This document shows positions 43,546 through 55,011 of a stretch of 64,000 nucleotides of DNA, piece by piece. This DNA is from Candidatus Obscuribacterales bacterium. GTDB lineage: Bacteria; Cyanobacteriota; Vampirovibrionia; Obscuribacterales; Obscuribacteraceae. The DNA is taken from positions 384,001-448,000 of the forward strand of contig CBDDIJ010000005.1 of assembly GCA_965228855.1 (NCBI GenBank). Direction: 5' to 3'. The translations under genes were made by a program, and so were the position numbers. Each line of letters starts with the position of its first letter. Position 1 is the first letter of the stretch. The notes below the pieces were generated by a model. The model did not search any database. It was not told the origin of the DNA and saw only the letters and a program-made list of their open reading frames with translations.

Positions 43546-45285
43546 ATGATGTCAGATGGCAATGTAGAAGTTCTTATAGTCGGCGCCGGTCCTACCGGAC
43601 TCACTCTAGCGTGTGAACTGGCAAGACACGGAGTAAGCTTCCGTATCGTCGATAAAAACGCGGTTGCCTCGGACCTCTCGAAGGCGCTCGCAGTTCATGC
43701 CCGCACGCTTGAAGTCTTCGAAGATATGGGCATCGTAGACCGATTTTTGACTTTCGGACTAAAACTGAAGGCAATCAACGTGTACGCCGATGAAAAGCAA
43801 ATCGCGCACATGACGCTCGACGAGCTGGATAGCGCTTACTCATTTGCTCTGTCGCTCCCGCAGAGCGATACAGAACGAATACTTATGGAGCGGCTTGCAG
43901 AGCTCGGTTACGCAGTTGAGCGCTCGGTAGAAGTAGTTGAACTCAGCCAGAACGACGATGGCGTCGAGTGCAAGGTGAAGAGTCCTCACAACGGCGAAGA
44001 ATCAATCAAAACACGATGGGTTGTGGGTTGCGATGGTGCGCACAGCATCGTTCGCAAGCAACTGAAGCTTGATTTTGAAGGCACCAAGTATCCGGACTTA
44101 CTGCAACTCGGCGACGTTGAAGTGCATGGACCACTCGTACATGATGAATTGTACGTGCTCAATTCCGACAAAGGATTGATCGCGCTATTCCCATATGGCG
44201 GCAACAGGTATCGCCTGGCAGCGGTGGACCTGGACAGGGACAGCAAAGGAGAGTCGGACGTTTTACCCGAGCCATCGCTTGAGGATCTTCAAGCTCTCGT
44301 CGATGAGCGATCGCTGTTTCCGCTCAAACTATCAAACATGCACTGGTCTGCAGCGCTCTATTTGCAACGACGACACGTAACCCACTACCGTGTCGGGAAC
44401 TGTTTTCTCGCCGGCGACGCCGCGCACATACACAGCCCGGCGGGCGGTCAAGGCATGAACACAGGAATTCAAGACAGTTACAATCTGGCGTGGAAAATGG
44501 CTCTGGTTTCACGTGGTGTTTCCAGCGATTTGCTCCTCGATTCGTACAACGCGGAACGCCTTGGTATCGCCATTGATGTTTTGAAACTTACGGATTTCAT
44601 GATGAAGGTCAACACGCTAAAAAATCCTGTAGCGAAAAAACTCAGAGACACATTGGCTCCGGTTCTCTCAGCACAAGAGGTTGTTCAGAAACGTGCTCGC
44701 AGCGGCATTGCGGAATTATCATTGAACTATCGAGATAGTCCTATTGTCGAAGAGCACGTCTCCTCCATCGTAGAGGCAATTGCGCCTAAGCAAGACATGC
44801 CATCACTCTCGGATCACTTTGCGTTTAAAAACGGTCCGGAAGCGGGAGATCGAGCGCCGGATGCTTTCCTCAAGGCGCCAACCGTAGGCAAGGATGAACA
44901 GGAAAAGGATCCACTACGATTGTATGAGATTCTTCATGGCACAAGGCACGTCCTTCTGATCTTTTCTGGTGACGAGACCACTCACGAAGAAATTGACCTG
45001 TTTAAAGCTACCGCCGTTAGTATCGGTAAACTCCCGGATGGTCTGGTTGAAACGGTCATTATAGTAGACTCAGAAGACAGCAAAAGGCATTGCGCGCAGC
45101 TTGATACCATAGACAATTTCCGAGTGCTCTGCGACTGGGAGATGTCCACACATCACCGTTACGGCGCCGGCGCCAATTGCATGTATTTGATCAGACCGGA
45201 TGGTTACGTTGGGTTTAGATCACAACCAATGGATTTGGATCTGTTGAATTCATACTTCAAACGCATTTTCGATAAGTCGTTTTAA
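43546..45285 (+). CDS. FAD-dependent aromatic monooxygenase, PheA/TfdB/PcpB family
   Basis: GAGPTGL, GCDGAHS, LAGDAAHIHSPAGGQGMNTGIQD, C-terminal LIRPDGYVG. Confidence 0.92.
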   Translation: MMSDGNVEVLIVGAGPTGLTLACELARHGVSFRIVDKNAVASDLSKALAVHARTLEVFEDMGIVDRFLTFGLKLKAINVYADEKQIAHMTLDELDSAYSFALSLPQSDTERILMERLAELGYAVERSVEVVELSQNDDGVECKVKSPHNGEESIKTRWVVGCDGAHSIVRKQLKLDFEGTKYPDLLQLGDVEVHGPLVHDELYVLNSDKGLIALFPYGGNRYRLAAVDLDRDSKGESDVLPEPSLEDLQALVDERSLFPLKLSNMHWSAALYLQRRHVTHYRVGNCFLAGDAAHIHSPAGGQGMNTGIQDSYNLAWKMALVSRGVSSDLLLDSYNAERLGIAIDVLKLTDFMMKVNTLKNPVAKKLRDTLAPVLSAQEVVQKRARSGIAELSLNYRDSPIVEEHVSSIVEAIAPKQDMPSLSDHFAFKNGPEAGDRAPDAFLKAPTVGKDEQEKDPLRLYEILHGTRHVLLIFSGDETTHEEIDLFKATAVSIGKLPDGLVETVIIVDSEDSKRHCAQLDTIDNFRVLCDWEMSTHHRYGAGANCMYLIRPDGYVGFRSQPMDLDLLNSYFKRIFDKSF

Positions 45286-45288
45286 ACG

Positions 45289-46821
45289 CTACTTTTCTTC
45301 ATAGCCCTTTCCGACCTTCTCGTCAACGATTTGATCGTAGTACTGTTTTGCAGCACTGCTGTTGGGAAACGACTTCGTTTTTTCCTGCCCGTTCGTGCCG
45401 ATCCGACCGTATTTGACCGTAACATCATTGCCGTTCAGCACAATCGACCAGAATTTGCTGGACGAGCCTTCCACAAATTCGAAATATCTTGGCTGTTTGC
45501 CATCAGAAGTACTGCCACCAACTGCGGTGCCGCCTGTTTCGGGCGCAAGACTTTTCTCCTCAGGCGAAAACTGATTTGTTGAACCCACCAGGGACTGATG
45601 ACAATCAGAACAATAACAAAAGTGCGCTCCAACAACGGCTGGTTGAATAATTTCGATATCAGTTTCTGAGACTGCCCGCGGGGAGAAGTTCAACACATTG
45701 CTTTTAGTAGTAGAATTCACGACATCCCCCATCACTTCATCCGGCAAACTGTCGACATCGATTCTCGCACGCACGAATGATGGAAACCTCGGCACGCCGG
45801 CATCGGTCAATTCCTGGTAGCGGAAAGTTACGATACTGCCAATGGGCGGCGGATTGGCTCGCTCTTTGTCGGTGAAACCGGTACCGATAGCAAACTTTAT
45901 CCCGTTGGAAAGTTCGACACTGAGAGCCCCCATCTTGCCTTTGTGCTTTCCGGTTCCAGGCAAATATTCGAGGACGCGCGCCTCGGCATCATGAAAGGTT
46001 TTGACTTTGAGCAAACTGTGAGAACGGCCGTACTCATAACGCGAGTTAGGTTGCCGAAGCATAAGACCTTCACCGCCTGCAGCCTCCACTCGCTTCAACT
46101 CCTCAGTCAAATGCGCAACGTCGCGGCATCGTTCTTGCAAGTGAGGAGTCGCGTAACGAGGTCGGGTTTCATCCAACAGCTGCTGAAGATAAGCCATCCG
46201 CGCCTCGAAGACGTCGTCGACCTGAGGCGCATCGAATACGAGATACTTAACTTCTTCCCATTCCTTACCGCGATCCTGCCGCCGAACGATACTCACCGTG
46301 CGTTGAAACGTTTTGCGAGCAATCCATAACTCACCGTCAAGATGCACATCGCTAGGTAGGTCTTCGGTAAACCAATCCGGAGCCGTAAAGATGTTGCCCT
46401 GGCGAGAAACAAACTGTTTACCATCCCAATAAGCGCGCACGCCATCGAGTTTCTCGCTCATCCACCAACCGGTTAGGTCGGATGAGTTGTCCCAGGCGTG
46501 TGCAAGCAAAATACCTGGAATCAGTTCCTCTACTGCGCCACCACTAGCGCCACTAGAGGAAACTGGTAAGGCGATTCTTGAAGGGAATTTCGATTTAGCA
46601 GTCACGGCCTTCGCAGGTAACTCACCGCCCAGACGCTCGATTTCCGCCGCATCACCACGATATTTGCGCAGATGTTTGCACGTTCGCTTCTCGATCGGAT
46701 GCGATTGCGTCCGCCATGCAGGACAGCTGCAAGAGTAAACCCCGCCGGTATTCTTCAAAATATACGGATCCTTCGCTGAGCCCTGAATTTCTACCGATTC
46801 ACCATCTTCAATATCCGGCAT
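45289..46821 (-). CDS. SWIM Zn-finger, ATP-dependent DNA ligase, WGR-domain fusion
   Basis: CSCPAW...CKH (SWIM); SEKLDGVRA (motif I), LDGELW, FDAP, GEGLMLR, LLKVK, OB domain PRFP; SSKFW...YGRIGTNGQ...KGY (WGR). Confidence 0.9.
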   Translation of the reverse strand: MPDIEDGESVEIQGSAKDPYILKNTGGVYSCSCPAWRTQSHPIEKRTCKHLRKYRGDAAEIERLGGELPAKAVTAKSKFPSRIALPVSSSGASGGAVEELIPGILLAHAWDNSSDLTGWWMSEKLDGVRAYWDGKQFVSRQGNIFTAPDWFTEDLPSDVHLDGELWIARKTFQRTVSIVRRQDRGKEWEEVKYLVFDAPQVDDVFEARMAYLQQLLDETRPRYATPHLQERCRDVAHLTEELKRVEAAGGEGLMLRQPNSRYEYGRSHSLLKVKTFHDAEARVLEYLPGTGKHKGKMGALSVELSNGIKFAIGTGFTDKERANPPPIGSIVTFRYQELTDAGVPRFPSFVRARIDVDSLPDEVMGDVVNSTTKSNVLNFSPRAVSETDIEIIQPAVVGAHFCYCSDCHQSLVGSTNQFSPEEKSLAPETGGTAVGGSTSDGKQPRYFEFVEGSSSKFWSIVLNGNDVTVKYGRIGTNGQEKTKSFPNSSAAKQYYDQIVDEKVGKGYEEK

Positions 46822-46915
46822 CGTACACCCTCGTCGACTGCGGGTAATTTGCCACATAACGCAGGCATCAAATCGTCAGCCCGATTAACTTTACGAGCTG
46901 GCGAACGCCATTGAC

Positions 46916-47770
46916 TCAAACAACCAGTGGTATGCGCTCGAGTACGCCATCTCCGAAGGTTGCATAAAGACCGAGTTCGTTCATGTGGACATAGCCGATG
47001 TGACATCCGCAAACGGAGTTCGTGCATGGCGTTTCGATCAAGGCGCTCTCGAAGTTCGGATCGTAGATGTTCGCCACGGTCCCGGAAATGAAATGACAGC
47101 GCTTTATGTCACCCGCACCATCGACGGAAATGACTGCGGAACCCGCACGGCAAGCCTTCCCAAGACTTGAATGGTACTGATTATTGATAGGAAACATTGG
47201 ATCGATTGACGTCAAAAACTCAACCTCACCAGCCTCGTAGTAGTTTTCAACCCGCTTGAAAGCATTGACCCACAGGTAAACCCCAGGGGATAACTCACGA
47301 CGTAAGGAAACGATATCGTCGAAGTGCTCACGCAGTCCAACTACGCCGACAGAGAAACGTATTCCGCGCTCCTCCAGTTCGAGGCATTTCGAGAGGAAAC
47401 GTTCTCGCGGCGTTTCAGTTGGATGGAAGGTAGTCCACAAAGCTAGCTTGGCCCTGTCGCATCGCTCCACCCAGTCCAAATTGCAAGAAAGATTTGTTTG
47501 AATCGCAGCCTTGTCTATGGTATCGCTGGCGGTGAGGGCTATAAGTGCATCCTGATACCGTTTCCGAATTAAAGCTTCGCCCCATGGAGTGAACAAAACT
47601 GACAGGCGGAATTTCGTTTGAGATGTAGCCCACCTCACGAATCGCTTGAGCTGACGCTCATCTTCGGCGTGTTCCTCAACGGTTTCATGATGCTTCGCAA
47701 ACGGGCAATACTCACAACCGTAGTTGCAACTAGAGAGCGGACCGCGATAAAGGATTGATAGACTCTTCAA
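46916..47770 (-). CDS. STM4011-family radical SAM protein
   Basis: ILYRGPLSSCNYGCEYCPFAK, FTPWGEAL, QTNLS, C-terminal Cys cluster (RCHF...CGCHIGYVH). Confidence 0.88.
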   Translation of the reverse strand: MKSLSILYRGPLSSCNYGCEYCPFAKHHETVEEHAEDERQLKRFVRWATSQTKFRLSVLFTPWGEALIRKRYQDALIALTASDTIDKAAIQTNLSCNLDWVERCDRAKLALWTTFHPTETPRERFLSKCLELEERGIRFSVGVVGLREHFDDIVSLRRELSPGVYLWVNAFKRVENYYEAGEVEFLTSIDPMFPINNQYHSSLGKACRAGSAVISVDGAGDIKRCHFISGTVANIYDPNFESALIETPCTNSVCGCHIGYVHMNELGLYATFGDGVLERIPLVV

Positions 47771-47775
47771 AGAAT

Positions 47776-49152
47776 TTACCTGTTCTCGTAAGAGTCCATT
47801 TTCTCTTTTACGTCAGCCGAGTAAAGTTCAAAACCAATTCGATCCGACCACGCCAAGCCGTTTTCAGTAAGATACATTCGACCGTCCACAGTCTCAACAA
47901 GTTTAAGATTCTGCAACTCGTTTAACTCGTTTGAAAAATCAGAAAGCAACGCTTCGTTGAATCGTGAGTAGTATTCATCGAAAGACAAACCATCTAGTTG
48001 TAATAACGACTGAATTACGAACCGGCGCTTTCGTTCCTCATCGTTCAAAACGAAACCATAGTCCGCGAAAGCAAACGAGTCGGATGAGGCATTGACGTAG
48101 TCATGCAAAATGTCACGAATCGGCTTCTGACCGACGGCGTACCTCATAGAATAGTGGTGCGCAGAAGTATAGGACCTCGCTCCACATCCGATACCAATCA
48201 TGCCGTCATCCTGGCAGCAGTAAACAGGTTTTGAAACTGAGTCTCGCTCTCGTCGCTCGAACATGCGCATCGACGACTGTTGATATCCGTTGTCCGTTAA
48301 AACGGTGCGCGCCTGGCGATACAGCTCCAGACGAATATCGGCGGTTTCCATACCAGCCGTTTCCCTACCGACACTTTGCCGTCCCATACCAGTTAGCGGC
48401 CTAATGTACAGTGGATAGAGATAAACTTGCTCAGGTTCGTAACTCAAAGTTTCACTTAGTGTTTGCATCCAGGTGTCAAATGTTTGCCCGGGCAAGCCGT
48501 ACATAAGATCGACGTTCAACGTTGGGAAGTTAAACTGCTTCAACCGCTCAAGCGCACGTCGGACAACATTCGAATCTTGAGACCGACCAATTGCTCTAAC
48601 TTCTGACTCGATAAAACTTTGAATTCCTATACTTAGTCGTTCAACTCCGCGCTCTTTCAAAACACTGAGTTTCTCGGTCTCCGCAGTGTATGGTGACGTC
48701 TCCACTGAGCAGGGTGCTTGTTCGGGATCTGTTTTGAAAACGCGATCGACTATGTCAAATAAACGTTCTAAATCGGTAGCGTTCAAATATGTCGGTGTGC
48801 CACCGCCTAATGCCATGCGAGCAAACGAAGCATTGCCCAGCGCTTCGGCAACTTCATGGCACTGACGCTCAACGGCGTCTAAGTACTGTTTCTCCAGCGA
48901 AGCTTCCGGATTTGTGGTTGTGAACAAATTGCAAAAGCCGCATCTCATCTCACAAAACGGAATGTGGAGATAGAGAAACAAAGCGTCGCGTTTCTCCGCT
49001 TTCCAAAGTTCCTTCAGTGGAACAGGCTGCGGGAAGTCGCGGTAAGCCGTTTTATGCGGATAAGAATACGAGTACGCTTGATAGCGCGTATCTGCGCCAT
49101 CCACGAACCGACGGGGAACGGTCACGGAACCACTGGTGGTATCACGCACCAC
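47776..49152 (-). CDS. STM4012-family HemN-like radical SAM protein
   Basis: YSYPHKTAYR, YLHIPFCEMRCGFCNLF, GGGTPT, YCCQDDGMIGIGCGARSY. Confidence 0.88.
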   Translation of the reverse strand: MVRDTTSGSVTVPRRFVDGADTRYQAYSYSYPHKTAYRDFPQPVPLKELWKAEKRDALFLYLHIPFCEMRCGFCNLFTTTNPEASLEKQYLDAVERQCHEVAEALGNASFARMALGGGTPTYLNATDLERLFDIVDRVFKTDPEQAPCSVETSPYTAETEKLSVLKERGVERLSIGIQSFIESEVRAIGRSQDSNVVRRALERLKQFNFPTLNVDLMYGLPGQTFDTWMQTLSETLSYEPEQVYLYPLYIRPLTGMGRQSVGRETAGMETADIRLELYRQARTVLTDNGYQQSSMRMFERRERDSVSKPVYCCQDDGMIGIGCGARSYTSAHHYSMRYAVGQKPIRDILHDYVNASSDSFAFADYGFVLNDEERKRRFVIQSLLQLDGLSFDEYYSRFNEALLSDFSNELNELQNLKLVETVDGRMYLTENGLAWSDRIGFELYSADVKEKMDSYENR

Positions 49153-49646
49153 TAGCTTTTCTCCTTCTTCTGCTTCATCGCCTTTTTCAGAGCTTCAAGT
49201 TCAGCATCAAGAGAAAGTGACTTTGACTCGCGTTCAAACTTTCTCTCGTCATCTTTCGCCGACAATTCAGCCAGTGCTTCCTTCTCGAAGATCTTGCCTT
49301 CCAACCTTTGAAGCGTTTCCTCACCATCATCGAAATCGGGCATGCTCGGCGGCGGCGGAATATTGACGTTATGCTCAAGTTTTGAAAGCGTCACCTTCAG
49401 TTGCTTTTCCAAATCTTCTTGAGACATCAAATCAGCTTCCAGTTCTGCAATTAGAAGCTCCAGCGACCTTATTCGATCGGTGACTTCCTTTTCGACATCG
49501 TCCGCCCCGGTTTTCTGCGTGATCGCCAGACGTTTACGCCAGGTCGCAAGCTCGCCTTTCGACTTATCCAGCTTCTCTTTGATCAACTTTTGAGATGTTA
49601 CGGCCTCAATGAGCGCGTTTCGCACCTCAGCGATTTCTTCGGACAT
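49152..49646 (-). CDS. PspA/IM30-like protein lacking the N-terminal helix
   Basis: Aligns by eye to PspA from about Met36; W in helix 2, LQRLEGKI..EALAEL, LDAELEALKK; GGAGAG RBS. Confidence 0.75.
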   Translation of the reverse strand: MSEEIAEVRNALIEAVTSQKLIKEKLDKSKGELATWRKRLAITQKTGADDVEKEVTDRIRSLELLIAELEADLMSQEDLEKQLKVTLSKLEHNVNIPPPPSMPDFDDGEETLQRLEGKIFEKEALAELSAKDDERKFERESKSLSLDAELEALKKAMKQKKEKS

Positions 49647-49884
49647 ATGCTCTCCAATAGCGCGCAACAGCCTTCAACAGGTTATTCATCGGTCACATCC
49701 ACCTCCACGCTCCCATATCAAGGTCGTCGTTTGCGGCTGATTATATTTTAGCTCCTGTTGCCTTTAAACCTTGCACCTTACTCAGAGCAACATGACCACA
49801 GTCACGCGCAGATATGACATATCTCAATCGTTTCGCCCAACGGTAAACGAGAGAATAAATTCATCAAACATCTGAGGAGCGCAA

Positions 49885-50274
49885 ATGTATCAAAACTCAG
49901 ACCATCGTCTACTTGAACTGAACCCGCTTTTTTCCTCTTGTATTCTAGGTTCGCTCTTTACTTCACTTCTGGTTCTCAGCGCAGCTGCCTTCCCGCAGAT
50001 CGTAGACCTGATGGTCGGAACCGCTTTCAATTGCCTTCTCCATCCCACAACCGTACTGCTCAATCCGCTCAGCTGGATCACAATTACGCCTAACATCATG
50101 TTCTGTGCTCTAGGCTACTTCTTTTTCAAGGGACAGGACGTGGCGATAGCGTTCTGGCTTACTGCCTACGCTCACTTTACGATCACGATACTTCTTATAC
50201 AGGCTTTGGGGAACAGGAGCGTGGTTCACGTTAAACGACGCAAGGCACGGATTTGCGGAGCAATCTACGCATAG
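49885..50274 (+). CDS. Hypothetical membrane protein, about 3 TM
   Basis: GAGGAG RBS; hydrophobic segments. Confidence 0.65.
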   Translation: MYQNSDHRLLELNPLFSSCILGSLFTSLLVLSAAAFPQIVDLMVGTAFNCLLHPTTVLLNPLSWITITPNIMFCALGYFFFKGQDVAIAFWLTAYAHFTITILLIQALGNRSVVHVKRRKARICGAIYA

Positions 50275-50286
50275 TCGGAAACCGGT

Positions 50287-51303
50287 TCACTTTCCTTCCA
50301 GCCAATACAGACGGTATTGCTTCCACTCATCTTCGTCCATCGTATATTCGGCAAAGGGTGCAACGCCCTCGAAAACGTCAGGCACCGCATCTGGTGACGC
50401 TAATCCTTGCCTGATTCCCTTGAGCGCTGTCACGAGATTCTCGCTGTATGTCATGTGTGCCGGCGTCCCTTTGTCCGTGTCGTATACAGGAATTCCGATT
50501 ATCACCGAGCATAGATGTTTCAAATCATCTTTGGACGCGGCGTTGCGCACAGCGCGAGTAACCTGAATGGCTTGCTGTTGCATAAGCCAGACATACGCAC
50601 GAGGATGATAGAGCCAGGAGTCGTATCCCATAACAGCAATCTGGTCGCAATGTGCAGAAATCACAGAAAAATGCTCGGAATCCCAACCCCAAAGCGCTCC
50701 GGGGTACCACATAGGAGTTGCCACCGAGAGAAGTTTCTCCGAACCAATCGCTGCGCGCGTCTCATCCAGTAACAGAGGAAACGTTTTGTCAGTGTTCGGG
50801 AAAAACTCATAGTCGAGTTGCACACCGTCAAACCCGCACTTTTCCGTTAGCCACTGGCAGGAAGCGACAAGATTCTCACGAGAATCTTTATCCTCAAGAT
50901 CAACCCCGACACGTCCAAAATTACTGGGCACATACAGCCAAGCCACTACCCGCACTTTGGGCAGTCGGCGGTGCAGCAGCTCGACAAGTTCGCGCGCCGG
51001 CTCTTCATACTTAAACAGCAAATTTCCATGACTGTCGGTGCTGCGCACATGGAAGTACGCATACTTAATCTGATTCGCAGATAAACGCTCGATAAGCTCA
51101 TCTCTCTCCTGCAGAGACTTTTTGCCGAAATACCAGAGATAACGAAGCCAGATGCCATTGGCACCTTTATTGAAGCTACTCCCGCCAGGTGGATTTAAAC
51201 TCAGATAGCTCACACAATCAGCCACAAATGCGACCGTCAACGCGACTAATACGCCGGCACTGATTCTAATTAACTTCAATCGGGATGCTCGTGCTGATGT
51301 CAT
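50287..51303 (-). CDS. Glycoside hydrolase family 18-like protein with N-terminal anchor
   Basis: GFDGVQLDYE (variant of DxxDxDxE), LLSVA, DQIAVMGYD, IIGIPVY. Confidence 0.75.
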   Translation of the reverse strand: MTSARASRLKLIRISAGVLVALTVAFVADCVSYLSLNPPGGSSFNKGANGIWLRYLWYFGKKSLQERDELIERLSANQIKYAYFHVRSTDSHGNLLFKYEEPARELVELLHRRLPKVRVVAWLYVPSNFGRVGVDLEDKDSRENLVASCQWLTEKCGFDGVQLDYEFFPNTDKTFPLLLDETRAAIGSEKLLSVATPMWYPGALWGWDSEHFSVISAHCDQIAVMGYDSWLYHPRAYVWLMQQQAIQVTRAVRNAASKDDLKHLCSVIIGIPVYDTDKGTPAHMTYSENLVTALKGIRQGLASPDAVPDVFEGVAPFAEYTMDEDEWKQYRLYWLEGK

Positions 51304-52106
51304 TTAGACTGAGGTAAAACAAACTCGCTGTATGGAACATTCCAGACACATTCATGTGAAACGCGATGCCCGACAAACCCATCCTCACCATATGCGGTGC
51401 CATGATCAGAAAAGATTAGAACTAACAAAGGAGCTCGCCTTCTCATTGTATCGAGAAGTTCCGGAAGCTGCTTGTCTACATAAGAAAGTGCCTGCGCCTG
51501 CGTTTCCTTCGAATCCTCGGTTGCACCGTCCGTAAAAATACAATTTGGCTGATGCAGCGCGGATACGTTCAAGAAGAGAAAAAGTCGTTTCTCACTGTCA
51601 GTTTTATTGATTATTTCCGTAGCCAACCGAACCTGGTTCGCTGTCGAATTTCGATCGGTAACGCCCAGTGACTTACTCCAGTAACTCTCTGAGAAGAAAG
51701 CGGGTAGAGCGTTGCCCAGTGGATTTAGTTTGTTGAAGAAACCGACTCCGCCTATGCAAACGGTTCTATAACCTTGTGAGGCGAATCCGGAAATTATGTC
51801 CGGAGTATCGAACACAACAGTGCTATCACCCGTGGTGACGCTTCCTTCGAACTTAACGGCAAATAGACGCTCATGTTCACCTGGTGTCGCAGGAGTTGGC
51901 AGAAAGCCAGTGAAGAACGCTTGATGCGCGGGAAGTGTGAAATTACCGGGACTGTGCCTTAGCTCCCATTTACCTCCGGGAAGCAACGCCTTTATGTTAG
52001 GAGTCAAACCCGCATCAAGCGCCTCAACAGCTACATCGTAACGTAGCGCATCCAGTGTGACGAGAAGAACGTCATGCGTCCCCACAATTTCTCGAGCGTT
52101 AAGCAT
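51300..52106 (-). CDS. STM4013-family hydrolase, alkaline-phosphatase/sulfatase fold
   Basis: TLDALRYD, HSPGNFTLPAHQAFFTGFLPTP, NVSALHQPN, SDHGTAYGEDG. Confidence 0.88.
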   Translation of the reverse strand: MLNAREIVGTHDVLLVTLDALRYDVAVEALDAGLTPNIKALLPGGKWELRHSPGNFTLPAHQAFFTGFLPTPATPGEHERLFAVKFEGSVTTGDSTVVFDTPDIISGFASQGYRTVCIGGVGFFNKLNPLGNALPAFFSESYWSKSLGVTDRNSTANQVRLATEIINKTDSEKRLFLFLNVSALHQPNCIFTDGATEDSKETQAQALSYVDKQLPELLDTMRRRAPLLVLIFSDHGTAYGEDGFVGHRVSHECVWNVPYSEFVLPQSK

Positions 52107-53274
52107 TGACGCCCACCTTGCTGAGCCGGTGCCGCATCGCCTTCAGTTCCCACTCGTAAGTGCTCAATCCATCGCAGAGTATCCCCGGCAACAGGTCGCC
52201 AAAGGCGTTAGCTTCAGACACCACATGGCTGCGCATATCGGAACTGACAAGAACGTCGATGCCCAGGTATAAACAATTCGGAAAAACTCCAGCGACCCGA
52301 CGGCACGAGTTCATCACCTCCGTCCAAAATAATTCACCCATGGCCTTGCGAACACTTTGCAACTGCCCACGACCGTTTAATAAATGCAAATTCGTAAAAG
52401 GTGTGAGACTTTCACGAACGACCACATGCCTGCATTCACCGCCTATGGTGACAACTCGCAAATCGAACGTTTTCCCGTTCAACCCTGCTTTGGGGTACCA
52501 TTTCTCGACAAATATATTGTGCTCGCCTAATCGATCGATCAGAGTGCGAATCTCTTGAATATCATAGATACGCCGCACTCTTCGCGTGTTATAGATCCTA
52601 GTTTTACCTCCGGTGGAAACGGCTTCCACGGTGGTAGAAGCTAACTGTCGGTTTTGGCTTCGTTCAAAAGCAACAATGCCCGAGGCACTTGAACTATGAG
52701 CCGGTTTTACAAAAACTCGATTGCACTCGTTCCTATCCATAAGTTCAACGAGATCGTTGAACTTATGGATAGGACCAAGCAACTTCGTCGTCCTGATTTC
52801 AGCAAGGCGAAACAGCTCGTGGCACCTAATTTTATCAAATAGAATCTCTATATCGGTAGCAGAGTTCATAACCATATGCGGTGCACTCGCCTTCAATTGC
52901 ACGTCAATCAGTCTCAAGAGGCGACACCATCCCTGATACCATTGGTGCTGCGACAAAATTAATCCGCGATCAAATTGCAGAGCATCGATATCGTCATGGC
53001 ACAATGCTCCCGGGAGATTGAAATCACTTTCCTTGCTGCTAATTCCGAGACGCAACAAATCCCGCTCCAACTCAAAATCCTTTCCTGGGGATTCGATTCG
53101 AACAATATCATCGGGTTCAACTATGTCGGAAAGCTCTACCGCACCGCGAATCAGCCCCTGGAAGGAAACGACAATGATCCCCTCGATACTCTGACCGTAC
53201 TCACTTTGCTCAAGTGTGTTTCGAAACAGCTCGAGCCGTCTGCCCTCAGTTCCAATCCAGACCAGGCGACGCAT
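52099..53274 (-). CDS. STM4014-family ATP-grasp protein
   Basis: RIESPG, FDK..CH, FVKPAHSSSASG, FDLRV, TNLHL, EANAFGDLLP. Confidence 0.85.
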   Translation of the reverse strand: MRRLVWIGTEGRRLELFRNTLEQSEYGQSIEGIIVVSFQGLIRGAVELSDIVEPDDIVRIESPGKDFELERDLLRLGISSKESDFNLPGALCHDDIDALQFDRGLILSQHQWYQGWCRLLRLIDVQLKASAPHMVMNSATDIEILFDKIRCHELFRLAEIRTTKLLGPIHKFNDLVELMDRNECNRVFVKPAHSSSASGIVAFERSQNRQLASTTVEAVSTGGKTRIYNTRRVRRIYDIQEIRTLIDRLGEHNIFVEKWYPKAGLNGKTFDLRVVTIGGECRHVVVRESLTPFTNLHLLNGRGQLQSVRKAMGELFWTEVMNSCRRVAGVFPNCLYLGIDVLVSSDMRSHVVSEANAFGDLLPGILCDGLSTYEWELKAMRHRLSKVGVNA

Positions 53275-54218
53275 TATTCACTGACCGCGATGAAACGCCA
53301 GATGGTTCCATCCTCTTCGCGATCACCCTCTTGCTTATCATCCAGATTTACTTTGATACCAAGGCTAAGAAATTTCTTGCTCATTTCATCCGACAAATAG
53401 TGGTAGTGGAGATCTAGATAGTCGAGATTCTTAAGATGCGGGCATTTGAGAAGAGCTTCACCACCTGTATCAGTCATGGTGCCCATCGACAAATCAAGCA
53501 CCCGGAGTTTTGAAACAACTTTCGATCTTGCAATCAGCTCCGCAATTTCGTCGGCCTTCTCAGAATTTTTCAAGCCAAGATATCGGAGCTTCGGAAAGTA
53601 GTCTCCGTTTATCAACCTATCAATGCTATCAATCGTGTACTCGGCGCCGTAATTCTCCTCGCCGAGCCAAATTTCGAGGTGCTCGAGTTCCGGAAGTCTG
53701 GTAGCCAGGTCACTGGGAACGTCTGCAGGCAAACCGCTACATTGCAGAACAAAAGAACGCAAGTCTTTGCATTTACCTAAGCCATCACCAATCGTCAAAC
53801 CTCCGGCACCTCGAATGGCAAAGTGCGTCAACTTGGGAAATGCTGTCCACAATTCACCTATATCGCCGTGATCGAGCCACGAGCACTCGGACTCCTCCAT
53901 AATCACATCGCCGAAAAACATCTGGCGAAGACCGCAAAGCTTATCCTTGTATTTCACAAGAAGCTCGACGATAAACTCTGTATCCTGAGACCCAACATCT
54001 TCCCACGGACCTATCACTAGTGATTCCAGGTGCTCTACAAGCGGATCGGCGAGCAGTCGATCAAGTTTGTCCTCCCAGTAAAGACCATCATCCTCGTACT
54101 CACTGTAGGTTAAACTGACACGAATCGCTTCACCGTGAGGGTCAATGATTCTCTTATTCGTGTCAAAGTCGACTACCGGCTTGCCACAAAATTGAATAAG
54201 ATGTTCATTGATTGTCAT
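53274..54218 (-). CDS. STM4015-family LRR-like protein
   Basis: LESLVIGPW, FFGD...E.ECSW, LEHLEIWLG..NYG, FPKLRYLGLKNSE, LDLSMGT, C-terminal AVSE. Confidence 0.85.
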   Translation of the reverse strand: MTINEHLIQFCGKPVVDFDTNKRIIDPHGEAIRVSLTYSEYEDDGLYWEDKLDRLLADPLVEHLESLVIGPWEDVGSQDTEFIVELLVKYKDKLCGLRQMFFGDVIMEESECSWLDHGDIGELWTAFPKLTHFAIRGAGGLTIGDGLGKCKDLRSFVLQCSGLPADVPSDLATRLPELEHLEIWLGEENYGAEYTIDSIDRLINGDYFPKLRYLGLKNSEKADEIAELIARSKVVSKLRVLDLSMGTMTDTGGEALLKCPHLKNLDYLDLHYHYLSDEMSKKFLSLGIKVNLDDKQEGDREEDGTIWRFIAVSE

Positions 54219-54263
54219 TCGATCCCCTCAGGCTTAGAGCGATTCGGCTGCGCGTGCATCAAA

Positions 54264-54962
54264 TCAGTAATTACTTCGCTCGGTTGAGTTCAGCTTGACG
54301 CTTGTAACGAACAACCGAATTTTTTTCTGACCGGCAACGCGAATTGGTTTACCGTCAATGCTTGCTGCCCAAATGGCAACAAGGTCGGTACCGTTGCAAA
54401 TGGCAGTGATCGTTCCCGGAGGCGCTTCCCACTCATCAGGAGGGTCGTCCTCCCACTCACTCGCCTGCGTCGCGGTCAAACTTGGATCGAACTGCAATCG
54501 GATTCGTTTATCACCGAGGGCACCGAATGTGGTGGTCGGTTCGAGACTGTCATTTTCGAATCCACTGGAAGCATTGTTCACGACATTGGTAGGACCAGAG
54601 TAGTATTGATAGAACGGATCGGTGCTGAAACCGGCTGAAGATTGCAATTTTCCAGACTCAAAGGGATTGTTGGGACAGAGTTCGTTCAACTGACGAACAG
54701 CGTCATTCTCTTGATCGCCTGGTTCAGGCCAGTGGCGGTTCCAAATACAATATTGACTTATCCAAGAAGCGATTCGGACCATCTGTTCATAGAGTTCCGT
54801 GTCAGCTTGGGAAGTCGCAAGTCTGCGCTCCATGCGTTTCTCGACGCGCTCAAGTTTCGCATCGTCGTCCATCGAATCGTCATCGCCGAGCGCTGCAGCT
54901 GGGACCTGACCAGAGACCAGGAACAAGATGGCGATCAACGTGTTTCGAAACGCCTGTTTCAT
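54264..54962 (-). CDS. Hypothetical secreted protein
   Basis: Signal peptide MKQAFRNTLIAILFLVSGQVPAAA; NPF motif. Confidence 0.65.
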   Translation of the reverse strand: MKQAFRNTLIAILFLVSGQVPAAALGDDDSMDDDAKLERVEKRMERRLATSQADTELYEQMVRIASWISQYCIWNRHWPEPGDQENDAVRQLNELCPNNPFESGKLQSSAGFSTDPFYQYYSGPTNVVNNASSGFENDSLEPTTTFGALGDKRIRLQFDPSLTATQASEWEDDPPDEWEAPPGTITAICNGTDLVAIWAASIDGKPIRVAGQKKIRLFVTSVKLNSTERSNY

Positions 54963-55011
54963 AGATAAATATCCCGAAGTGCAAGCCAATTATACCCGGC
55001 GAGAAGAATGC

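Follow-up and report, generated by a model that had tools for sequence, protein, structure and literature searches.

A widespread STM4011-STM4015 radical SAM cassette with lineage-specific neighbours, among them a WGR-domain DNA ligase, in an Obscuribacterales genus

Does a compact locus that brings two radical SAM enzymes, an ATP-grasp ligase and a DNA ligase together encode one DNA-repair system, or a known cassette with local neighbours? The question is raised by positions 45289..54218 of a 64,000-nucleotide (nt) stretch (the window, to which all positions below refer) of contig CBDDIJ010000005.1 from a Candidatus Obscuribacterales bacterium (GCA_965228855.1). Nine open reading frames (ORFs) lie there: the five genes of the STM4011-STM4015 cassette, a GH18-like gene, a small membrane ORF, a PspA-like gene and an ATP-dependent DNA ligase with a WGR domain. 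An earlier note, made from the sequence alone, had read them as an expanded damage-response, repair or defence module. We find instead that the locus is a further copy of a widespread, named but unstudied cassette with lineage-specific neighbours, and probably not the expanded DNA-repair system that it resembles. The explanation that we favour, with moderate confidence, has two layers, a genus-specific arrangement and a carrier-type core; that the arrangement consists of an ordinary cassette with local cargo beside the family's own ligase is very likely.

All five cassette families were recognized above their curated NCBIfam cut-offs. On the minus strand lie the STM4015-family leucine-rich repeat (LRR) protein (53274..54218; 314 amino acids (aa); NF038076, 297 bits against a cut-off of 275), the STM4014-family ATP-grasp ligase (52099..53274; 391 aa; NF038074, 330 against 175), the STM4013-family hydrolase of the alkaline phosphatase (AP) superfamily (51300..52106; 268 aa; NF038075, 398 against 250), the STM4012-family HemN-like radical SAM enzyme (47776..49152; 458 aa; NF006067, 591 against 380) and the STM4011-family radical SAM enzyme (46916..47770; 284 aa; NF038073, 389 against 200). 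The core order is kept and co-directional, interrupted by 2.1 kb between STM4013 and STM4012. Both the gene order, strands and families claimed earlier and the junction sizes were borne out, the former by NCBIfam and Pfam searches and the latter by recomputation: overlaps of 1, 8 and 4 nt run from STM4015 to the GH18 gene (the last being STM4013/GH18), the PspA-like gene and STM4012 overlap by 1 nt, and gaps of 5 and 94 nt separate STM4012 from STM4011 and STM4011 from the ligase, taking the ATG at 46821 as the ligase start.

The cassette recurs widely without its neighbours in the window. GTDB genomes gave 324 STM4011 loci, and we examined the best 80, 7 of them in the window's genus-level clade and 73 outside it; of the 73, 65 extended 1.5 kb or more downstream and 39 were wide to either side. 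The ligase core, its SWIM part, the PspA-like gene, the GH18 gene and the membrane ORF were found in none of the 73 outside loci, and the enrichment of ligase, PspA-like and GH18 genes that the earlier note had looked to from such a survey is thus not seen. Within the genus, all five core genes are retained in the five genomes tested, though the cassette is split in three ways. In G128, G152 and L020, STM4013 is followed directly by STM4012, with STM4014 lying outside the cluster, while G120, G151 and G136 hold STM4015-14-13 beside groEL and STM4012-11-ligase on other contigs; in two of the latter three, several unrelated genes separate an upstream PspA-like gene from STM4012. The content of the STM4013-STM4012 interval differs among species. 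That five genes are kept despite three kinds of operon break argues that they act as one pathway.

The three genes in that interval are passengers, a local cargo. The GH18-like gene (50287..51303, minus strand; PF00704, 46.5 bits against a cut-off of 29.6) encodes a protein that looks exported, its hydropathy peaking at 2.09 on residue 18 within an N-terminal hydrophobic segment, unlike the core, whose proteins have no such segment and look cytoplasmic. In a survey of 104 genomes of the family it is present in 34, beside STM4013 in 2, and 30 of the 34 have no STM4011 match. The hydrophobic ORF of 129 aa (49885..50274, plus strand) has no Pfam or NCBIfam match, occurs in a single locus among the best 80 of 324 and is not in the sister contig L128. 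As for the short coiled-coil PspA/IM30-like protein (49152..49646, minus strand; 164 aa), its match to PF04012 is barely above the cut-off (34.1 against 33.9 bits) and covers profile positions 34-128 of 220. The earlier label of a truncated PspA holds in that the protein is short and matches only part of the profile, but the gene is not broken, being 163-170 aa long in all six genus copies aligned. It shares with PspA/IM30 (Vipp1, ESCRT-III-like) the coiled-coil match at the cut-off, and differs in its length, in a match that starts at profile position 34 and in the lack of a psp operon context; a separate 246-aa PspA-like paralogue lies on contig C3 of the same genome. In two of eight genus genomes the gene is directly 5' of STM4012; in two more some 4.2-4.7 kb lie between them, and in G128 and G136 it is on other contigs. 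Direct contact of the GH18 and PspA-like genes with cassette genes is confined to the window genome and its sisters L015 and L128. Membership of the three genes in the system, as first proposed, is not supported: they are absent from the 73 outside loci and adjoin the cassette in two of eight genus genomes.

A further element of the earlier reading, a transcription unit headed by an envelope-stress gene, is accounted for by a deletion. A scar at 49684..49705 (unstranded), located by a blastn break and by alignment with sister L015, marks the loss of about 580 bp that removed a membrane gene of 186-189 aa preceding the PspA-like gene in sister sequences. That gene is intact in L015 and L128, where it heads the unit, and was not found in the window genome; the PspA-like gene heads its block here only because of the loss. 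An assembly artefact behind the deletion is unsupported, in that two short-read contigs match the window, though they may be its source. The deleted gene and the PspA-like gene were also considered as a stable pair, a reading rejected because they go together in four genus loci but in none of eight outside. Sigma-70-like sites in the region number 4 against 9.9 expected by chance, and the match 5' of the PspA-like gene (49740..49768, minus strand; 10/12) is weak evidence by itself; its region is conserved in L015. The downstream half of the cassette probably uses a promoter that came with the inserted cargo.

The ligase has a different history. Encoded at 45289..46821 on the minus strand (510 aa), it scores 346 bits against a cut-off of 200 for PRK09125 (NF006592) and carries DNA_ligase_A_M (PF01068), OB_2 (PF14743) and a C-terminal WGR domain (PF05406, 7.6e-18), together with a KxDG motif. 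The ligase and WGR parts of the SWIM-ligase-WGR architecture described earlier are thus borne out, while the SWIM part is a CxC-x14-CxH motif read in the sequence, for which Pfam lists no SWIM family. STM4011 and the ligase are adjacent and co-directional in all eight genomes of the genus, 18-174 nt apart by ORF calls, with no terminator predicted between them in the window. Among the 104 family genomes STM4011 is present in 11 and the ligase in 18, and the two adjoin only in the genus's eight; two further genomes hold both on different contigs. We also surveyed 251 Myxococcota and 251 Planctomycetota genomes. Both genes occur in 38 of the former (12 on one contig, the nearest pair 358 kb apart, and 26 on different contigs) and in 4 of the latter, every pair on different contigs, so that adjacency was seen in none of the 44 other genomes holding both. 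From the ligase's side, the best 80 of 562 metagenome loci (50 with at least 1 kb upstream) include one with cassette genes beside it, from a sister strain, and 39 of 50 sampled STM4011 genomes, many of them incomplete, have no match to the window ligase.

Both gene trees, quick midpoint-drawn trees without bootstrap, place the adjacent copies together. STM4011 copies that lie next to the ligase group in a single clade (SH-aLRT 99), and the ligases adjacent to STM4011 likewise group in one (100), nested among the family's own ligases (94), which indicates that the adjacency arose in one event. Moderate support exists for the ligase as a pre-existing resident of an ispF-accC locus beside which the cassette arrived; the count of family loci outside the genus where it lies near ispF-accC, 2 of 10, tells against a firmer statement. 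On this comparison, an ordinary STM4015-4011 cassette is flanked by groES-groEL and by ispF-accC in one Obscuribacterales genus, and its 3' end came, once and in the genus ancestor, to lie beside a SWIM-ligase-WGR already carried by the family. The cassette has since been broken at different places in different species, the STM4013/STM4012 break holding cargo here. The ligase is probably co-transcribed with STM4011 yet would do its own job, which family membership suggests is nick sealing.

What, then, might the core do? The catalytic residues of the window proteins are intact (CxxxCxxC twice, the ATP-grasp residues and the AP metal ligands). STM4014 has the invariant ATP-grasp catalytic set K148, K190, D271, R273, D340, E354 and N356; a profile search retrieves LysX and RimK at E about 3e-4, and the fold ranking of a predicted model (pLDDT 93) puts ArgX, RimK and LysX first. 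STM4013 has the invariant residues D19, T57, D234, H235 and H247, with the alkaline-phosphatase metal ligands and a putative Thr57 nucleophile, and its solved relatives are of the sulfatase/NPP type. The radical SAM motif of STM4012 is invariant, and its nearest solved relatives are HemN (1e-54) and then the methyltransferase NocN (1.4e-33). STM4011 has five invariant cysteines beyond that motif (C207, C225, C249, C254 and C256), which likely hold an auxiliary Fe-S cluster; its fold is nearest SuiB, BlsE, anSME and SkfB, at a modest similarity (TM about 0.5). STM4015 has a homologue in the PDB (2RA8, E 9e-40).

The feature that most suggests a mechanism is the acidic tail of STM4015. Of 56 complete homologues, 55 have Glu as their last residue and the other spans an assembly gap (two matches were left out, one cut by the locus end and one a long fused frame), and the proteins of Salmonella, Bacteroides and Deinococcus end in Glu too (3/3). 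In the other four proteins the commonest last residue accounts for at most 9 of 48, 10 of 66, 9 of 81 and 42 of 79. An origin of the terminal Glu in an overlapping ribosome-binding site was rejected, because Glu stays where no gene overlaps the end of STM4015 (for example in L033, L058 and L106). In the available text of PMC4490483 and PMC9303977, the terminal Glu of a carrier protein is where LysX and ArgX attach amines, with tailoring and hydrolytic release following, and that of PMC10375531 has RimK extending the C-terminus of S6. We tentatively propose, at somewhat short of even confidence, that the five-gene core is a carrier-protein pathway built on STM4015. STM4014, as a LysX/RimK-type enzyme, would activate the carboxylate of the terminal Glu and couple an amine substrate to it; the HemN-like STM4012 would modify the tethered group by methyl or methylene transfer and the twitch/SPASM-like STM4011 by oxidation or cross-linking; and STM4013 would strip a phospho group or free the product, helped in other genomes by an optional HAD phosphatase. 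The families, residues, tail conservation and fold neighbours are observed; ligation to the tail, the order of steps and release are inferred from them.

Several points weigh against this proposal. The fold match of STM4014, at E 3e-12, is distant (13% identity, TM 0.54), and the scores of LysX, ArgX and RimK are hardly better than those of D-Ala-D-Ala ligase and inositol-phosphate kinases. Products of LysW-type carriers are freed by a peptidase, not by an AP-fold hydrolase. Moreover, the two proteins of a DUF6745 pair described below also have a near-invariant last residue (19/20 Asp and 19/20 Thr), so a fixed terminus can be structural and is no proof of a carrier.

Three rival accounts have to be set against these readings. 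The core may modify protein for its own sake, STM4014 glutamylating or cross-linking the STM4015 tail or a protein captured by its LRR, with the radical SAM enzymes maturing the target protein and no small product released. In its favour, RimK is among the top STM4014 matches, the STM4011 fold is nearest the peptide- and protein-modifying SPASM enzymes SuiB, anSME and SkfB, and STM4015, a 300-aa LRR protein with variable N-terminal domains (WGR, DUF1508, HEAT), is large for a mere carrier; on the other hand, the HAD phosphatase partner and the AP-fold hydrolase point to small phosphorylated intermediates, and STM4012 is nearest small-molecule enzymes. We regard this account as unlikely, though with an appreciable chance. 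The ligase might alternatively be a true optional partner, the cassette acting at damaged nucleic acid and its products or end-healing activities feeding break sealing, with WGR as the recruiting domain, on STM4015 in some lineages and on the ligase here. As the earlier note has it, STM4015 homologues elsewhere do carry WGR, fused in 9 of the 73 outside loci (Pfam-confirmed in the two tested), and Pfam lists none for the window's STM4015. The STM4011-ligase junction, on one strand with its short spacing, is as stable in the genus as STM4012-STM4011 (8/8), with every other junction broken in at least three of eight genomes and the gene beyond the ligase varying, a pattern suggestive of selection to keep STM4011 beside the ligase. 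Cassette and ligase also share genomes above chance, in Myxococcota (38/63 against 18/188) and in the family (10/11 against 8/93), figures uncorrected for kinship and genome size, and contig ends could hide adjacency in a few of the 26 Myxococcota and 4 Planctomycetota pairs on split contigs. These points count against our reading of the arrangement. Against a partnership stand the single origin of the adjacency, its absence from the 44 other genomes with both genes, the many STM4011 genomes (incomplete ones among them) with no ligase match, and the fact that most STM4015 proteins have neither a WGR domain nor a ligase nearby; flanks are not enriched in repair genes, and the best matches of STM4013, STM4014 and STM4012 include no relative acting on nucleic acids bar weak NPP phosphodiesterase matches. 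Ligase membership in the cassette thus stands as a stable co-directional junction in one genus and is not supported as a general link, and we consider both a real functional link and this rival improbable. Slimmer still is the chance of a combination in which an LRR-Glu carrier with a radical-SAM-built modification is targeted by WGR, on STM4015 or on its ligase partner, to DNA breaks and coupled to ligation.

The broadest rival, a single envelope-stress, repair or anti-phage module made up of all nine genes, draws on the tight STM4013/GH18 (4 nt) and PspA-like/STM4012 (1 nt) overlaps and on the repetition of the arrangement in two sister sequences. It is very improbable, and the neighbourhood surveys go most of the way to refuting it, given the rarity of GH18 beside the cassette, the many GH18 genomes with no STM4011 match, the exported look of GH18 against a cytoplasmic core and the other genes that occupy the interval in other species. 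The locus has ordinary GC content and housekeeping-type neighbours, including a FAD monooxygenase and genes that we take, from their sequences, to be groES-groEL, ispF and accC. PADLOC 2.0 returned only short, weak matches (WGR_XIII at 1e-3, pVip at 7e-4 and, best, PDC-M51A at 3.6e-10 over 79 residues), and no defence island was found in three annotated cassette neighbourhoods. In a flank census of 113 ORFs from 32 wide cassette loci (after removal of 8 near-duplicates and short loci), one RecA was the sole representative of any repair or recognisable defence family; with the PADLOC result, this tells against the repair or defence module of the earlier note. Viral contigs held no true STM4011 and one weak locus, phage records 2 matches, both in Salmonella records, among 50,697, and plasmid records 13 among 72,556, all 100 kb or larger. 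The evidence does not point to defence, and on a role in stress it is neutral.

Returning to the carrier-type core, how does it compare with known systems? The window shares with the STM4011-STM4015 cassette, which in Salmonella lies between ompL and typA, the same five families in the same order and the terminal Glu on STM4015; it differs in being split by three unrelated genes, in the ligase that follows and in having no HAD gene and no DUF6745 pair. The amino-group carrier systems (LysW with LysX/ArgX; Vzb22) and RimK/S6 occupy a similar ATP-grasp fold neighbourhood. What likens the cassette to LysW systems is that, beside an ATP-grasp ligase, it encodes a protein whose acidic tail ends in an invariant Glu; it differs in that its putative carrier is an LRR protein of 314 aa and that tailoring would be by radical SAM enzymes. 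No small LysW-like carrier and no release peptidase were found by Pfam and NCBIfam among the nine genes, nor is a LysX or RimK model among the NCBIfam matches. The cassette may work like a LysW-type pathway but is not assignable to that class. For the ligase, NT-OB_2-WGR bacterial ATP-dependent DNA ligases are a described group (Williamson and Leiros 2020, PMC7470946, in its searched text), with the same three domains and KxDG motif as the window protein; the SWIM-like N-terminal Zn finger goes unmentioned in the searched text of that paper, the host here belongs to the Obscuribacterales, and the STM4011 adjacency is confined to one genus in our surveys.

The literature, supplements and most subscription papers aside, yielded no functional study of STM4011-4015. 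This agrees with the earlier statement that the five families are named but have no established function: in the available text of PMC12413039, PMC2784778 and PMC4632510 the genes appear only as table rows. A sigma-54 link in Salmonella, a single ChIP site under STM4013.S in opposite orientation in the available part of PMC3844500, was not used.

Elsewhere the cassette has recurrent partners of its own. A pair formed by a small His-motif protein and an LRR-DUF6745 protein lies beside it in 17 of the 73 outside loci, and a HAD hydrolase in 11; the DUF6745/small-His pair are real extra cassette partners, and pair and HAD hydrolase, recurrent elsewhere, are absent from the window locus. The His-motif protein, of about 100 aa and belonging to no family, gave only unnamed clusters in an ESM Atlas search. 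Hosts of the pair include Chloroflexota, Planctomycetota, Armatimonadota and others; examples are L012:14575-16137, L082:11438-12932, 16 more loci and a Deinococcus plasmid record, and the window genome holds two pairs far from its cassette (C3:1694847-1696730 and C5:131663-133773). In a Bacteroides finegoldii record (L217:7965-9530) STM4011 is 521 aa long with a HAD-type motif, read from the sequence, in its C-terminal half, which parallels Salmonella, where a separate HAD gene follows STM4011. A second, lone STM4015 gene in G152 (L106:3212-8066) diverges from genes for a DUF6745-type protein, a TPR protein and the small His protein; the four enzymes are not nearby, and its tail still ends in Glu.

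The ligase likewise keeps company away from the cassette. In metagenome contigs SWIM-ligase-WGR is often preceded by a three-gene block (L144:6763-11329, L138:7126-11332, L172, L178), comprising two ORFs of 191 and 234 aa with no Pfam match (6 of 80 loci) and a protein of about 520 aa with a ligase C-terminal OB domain (PF04679; 11 loci); together with the ligase they resemble a repair module particular to it, perhaps an undescribed one. A MoxR AAA/DUF5682/VWA-CoxE operon lies near the ligase in 7-9 loci. Its WGR tail is expandable, with one WGR in the window, two in L017 and L018, three in L118 and five matches in L214 (L214:8895-12512, L118:11019-13403, L017:10969-13182); in L118 and L214 the ligase is divergent from a pair that we take to be SbcCD-like.

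Around the window locus itself, an ORF of 241 aa that belongs to no family and has a hydrophobic N-terminus (54264-54989) lies on the same strand, 45 nt 5' of STM4015, and its homologue adjoins groEL in genus relatives. At the other end, 3 nt separate the end of the ligase gene from that of the convergent FAD monooxygenase (45285-45289), with no terminator predicted. All nine genes are single-copy in the 8.2-Mb genome except for distant paralogues, and short-read contigs from two runs, which may be the source data, match 45200-54400 without any difference. Just 5' of the membrane and PspA-like genes in G120, G136 and the genome of L017 (L095, L098, L103) lies what is presumably a biotin-synthesis-like operon; in G136 an ORF that we take to be bioB-like lies 2.3 kb beyond STM4013, and, across contig breaks, the split cassette may enclose the operon. 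The bioF and bioC copies of these relatives have no close match in the window genome.

The cassette spans bacteria from Salmonella to myxobacteria, cyanobacteria and Melainabacteria. If the ligase link were true, it would tie unexplained radical SAM chemistry to DNA repair. What this locus contributes is that the five genes behave as one pathway of which the genes added here are not part, and the terminal-Glu hypothesis makes the function of that core directly testable.

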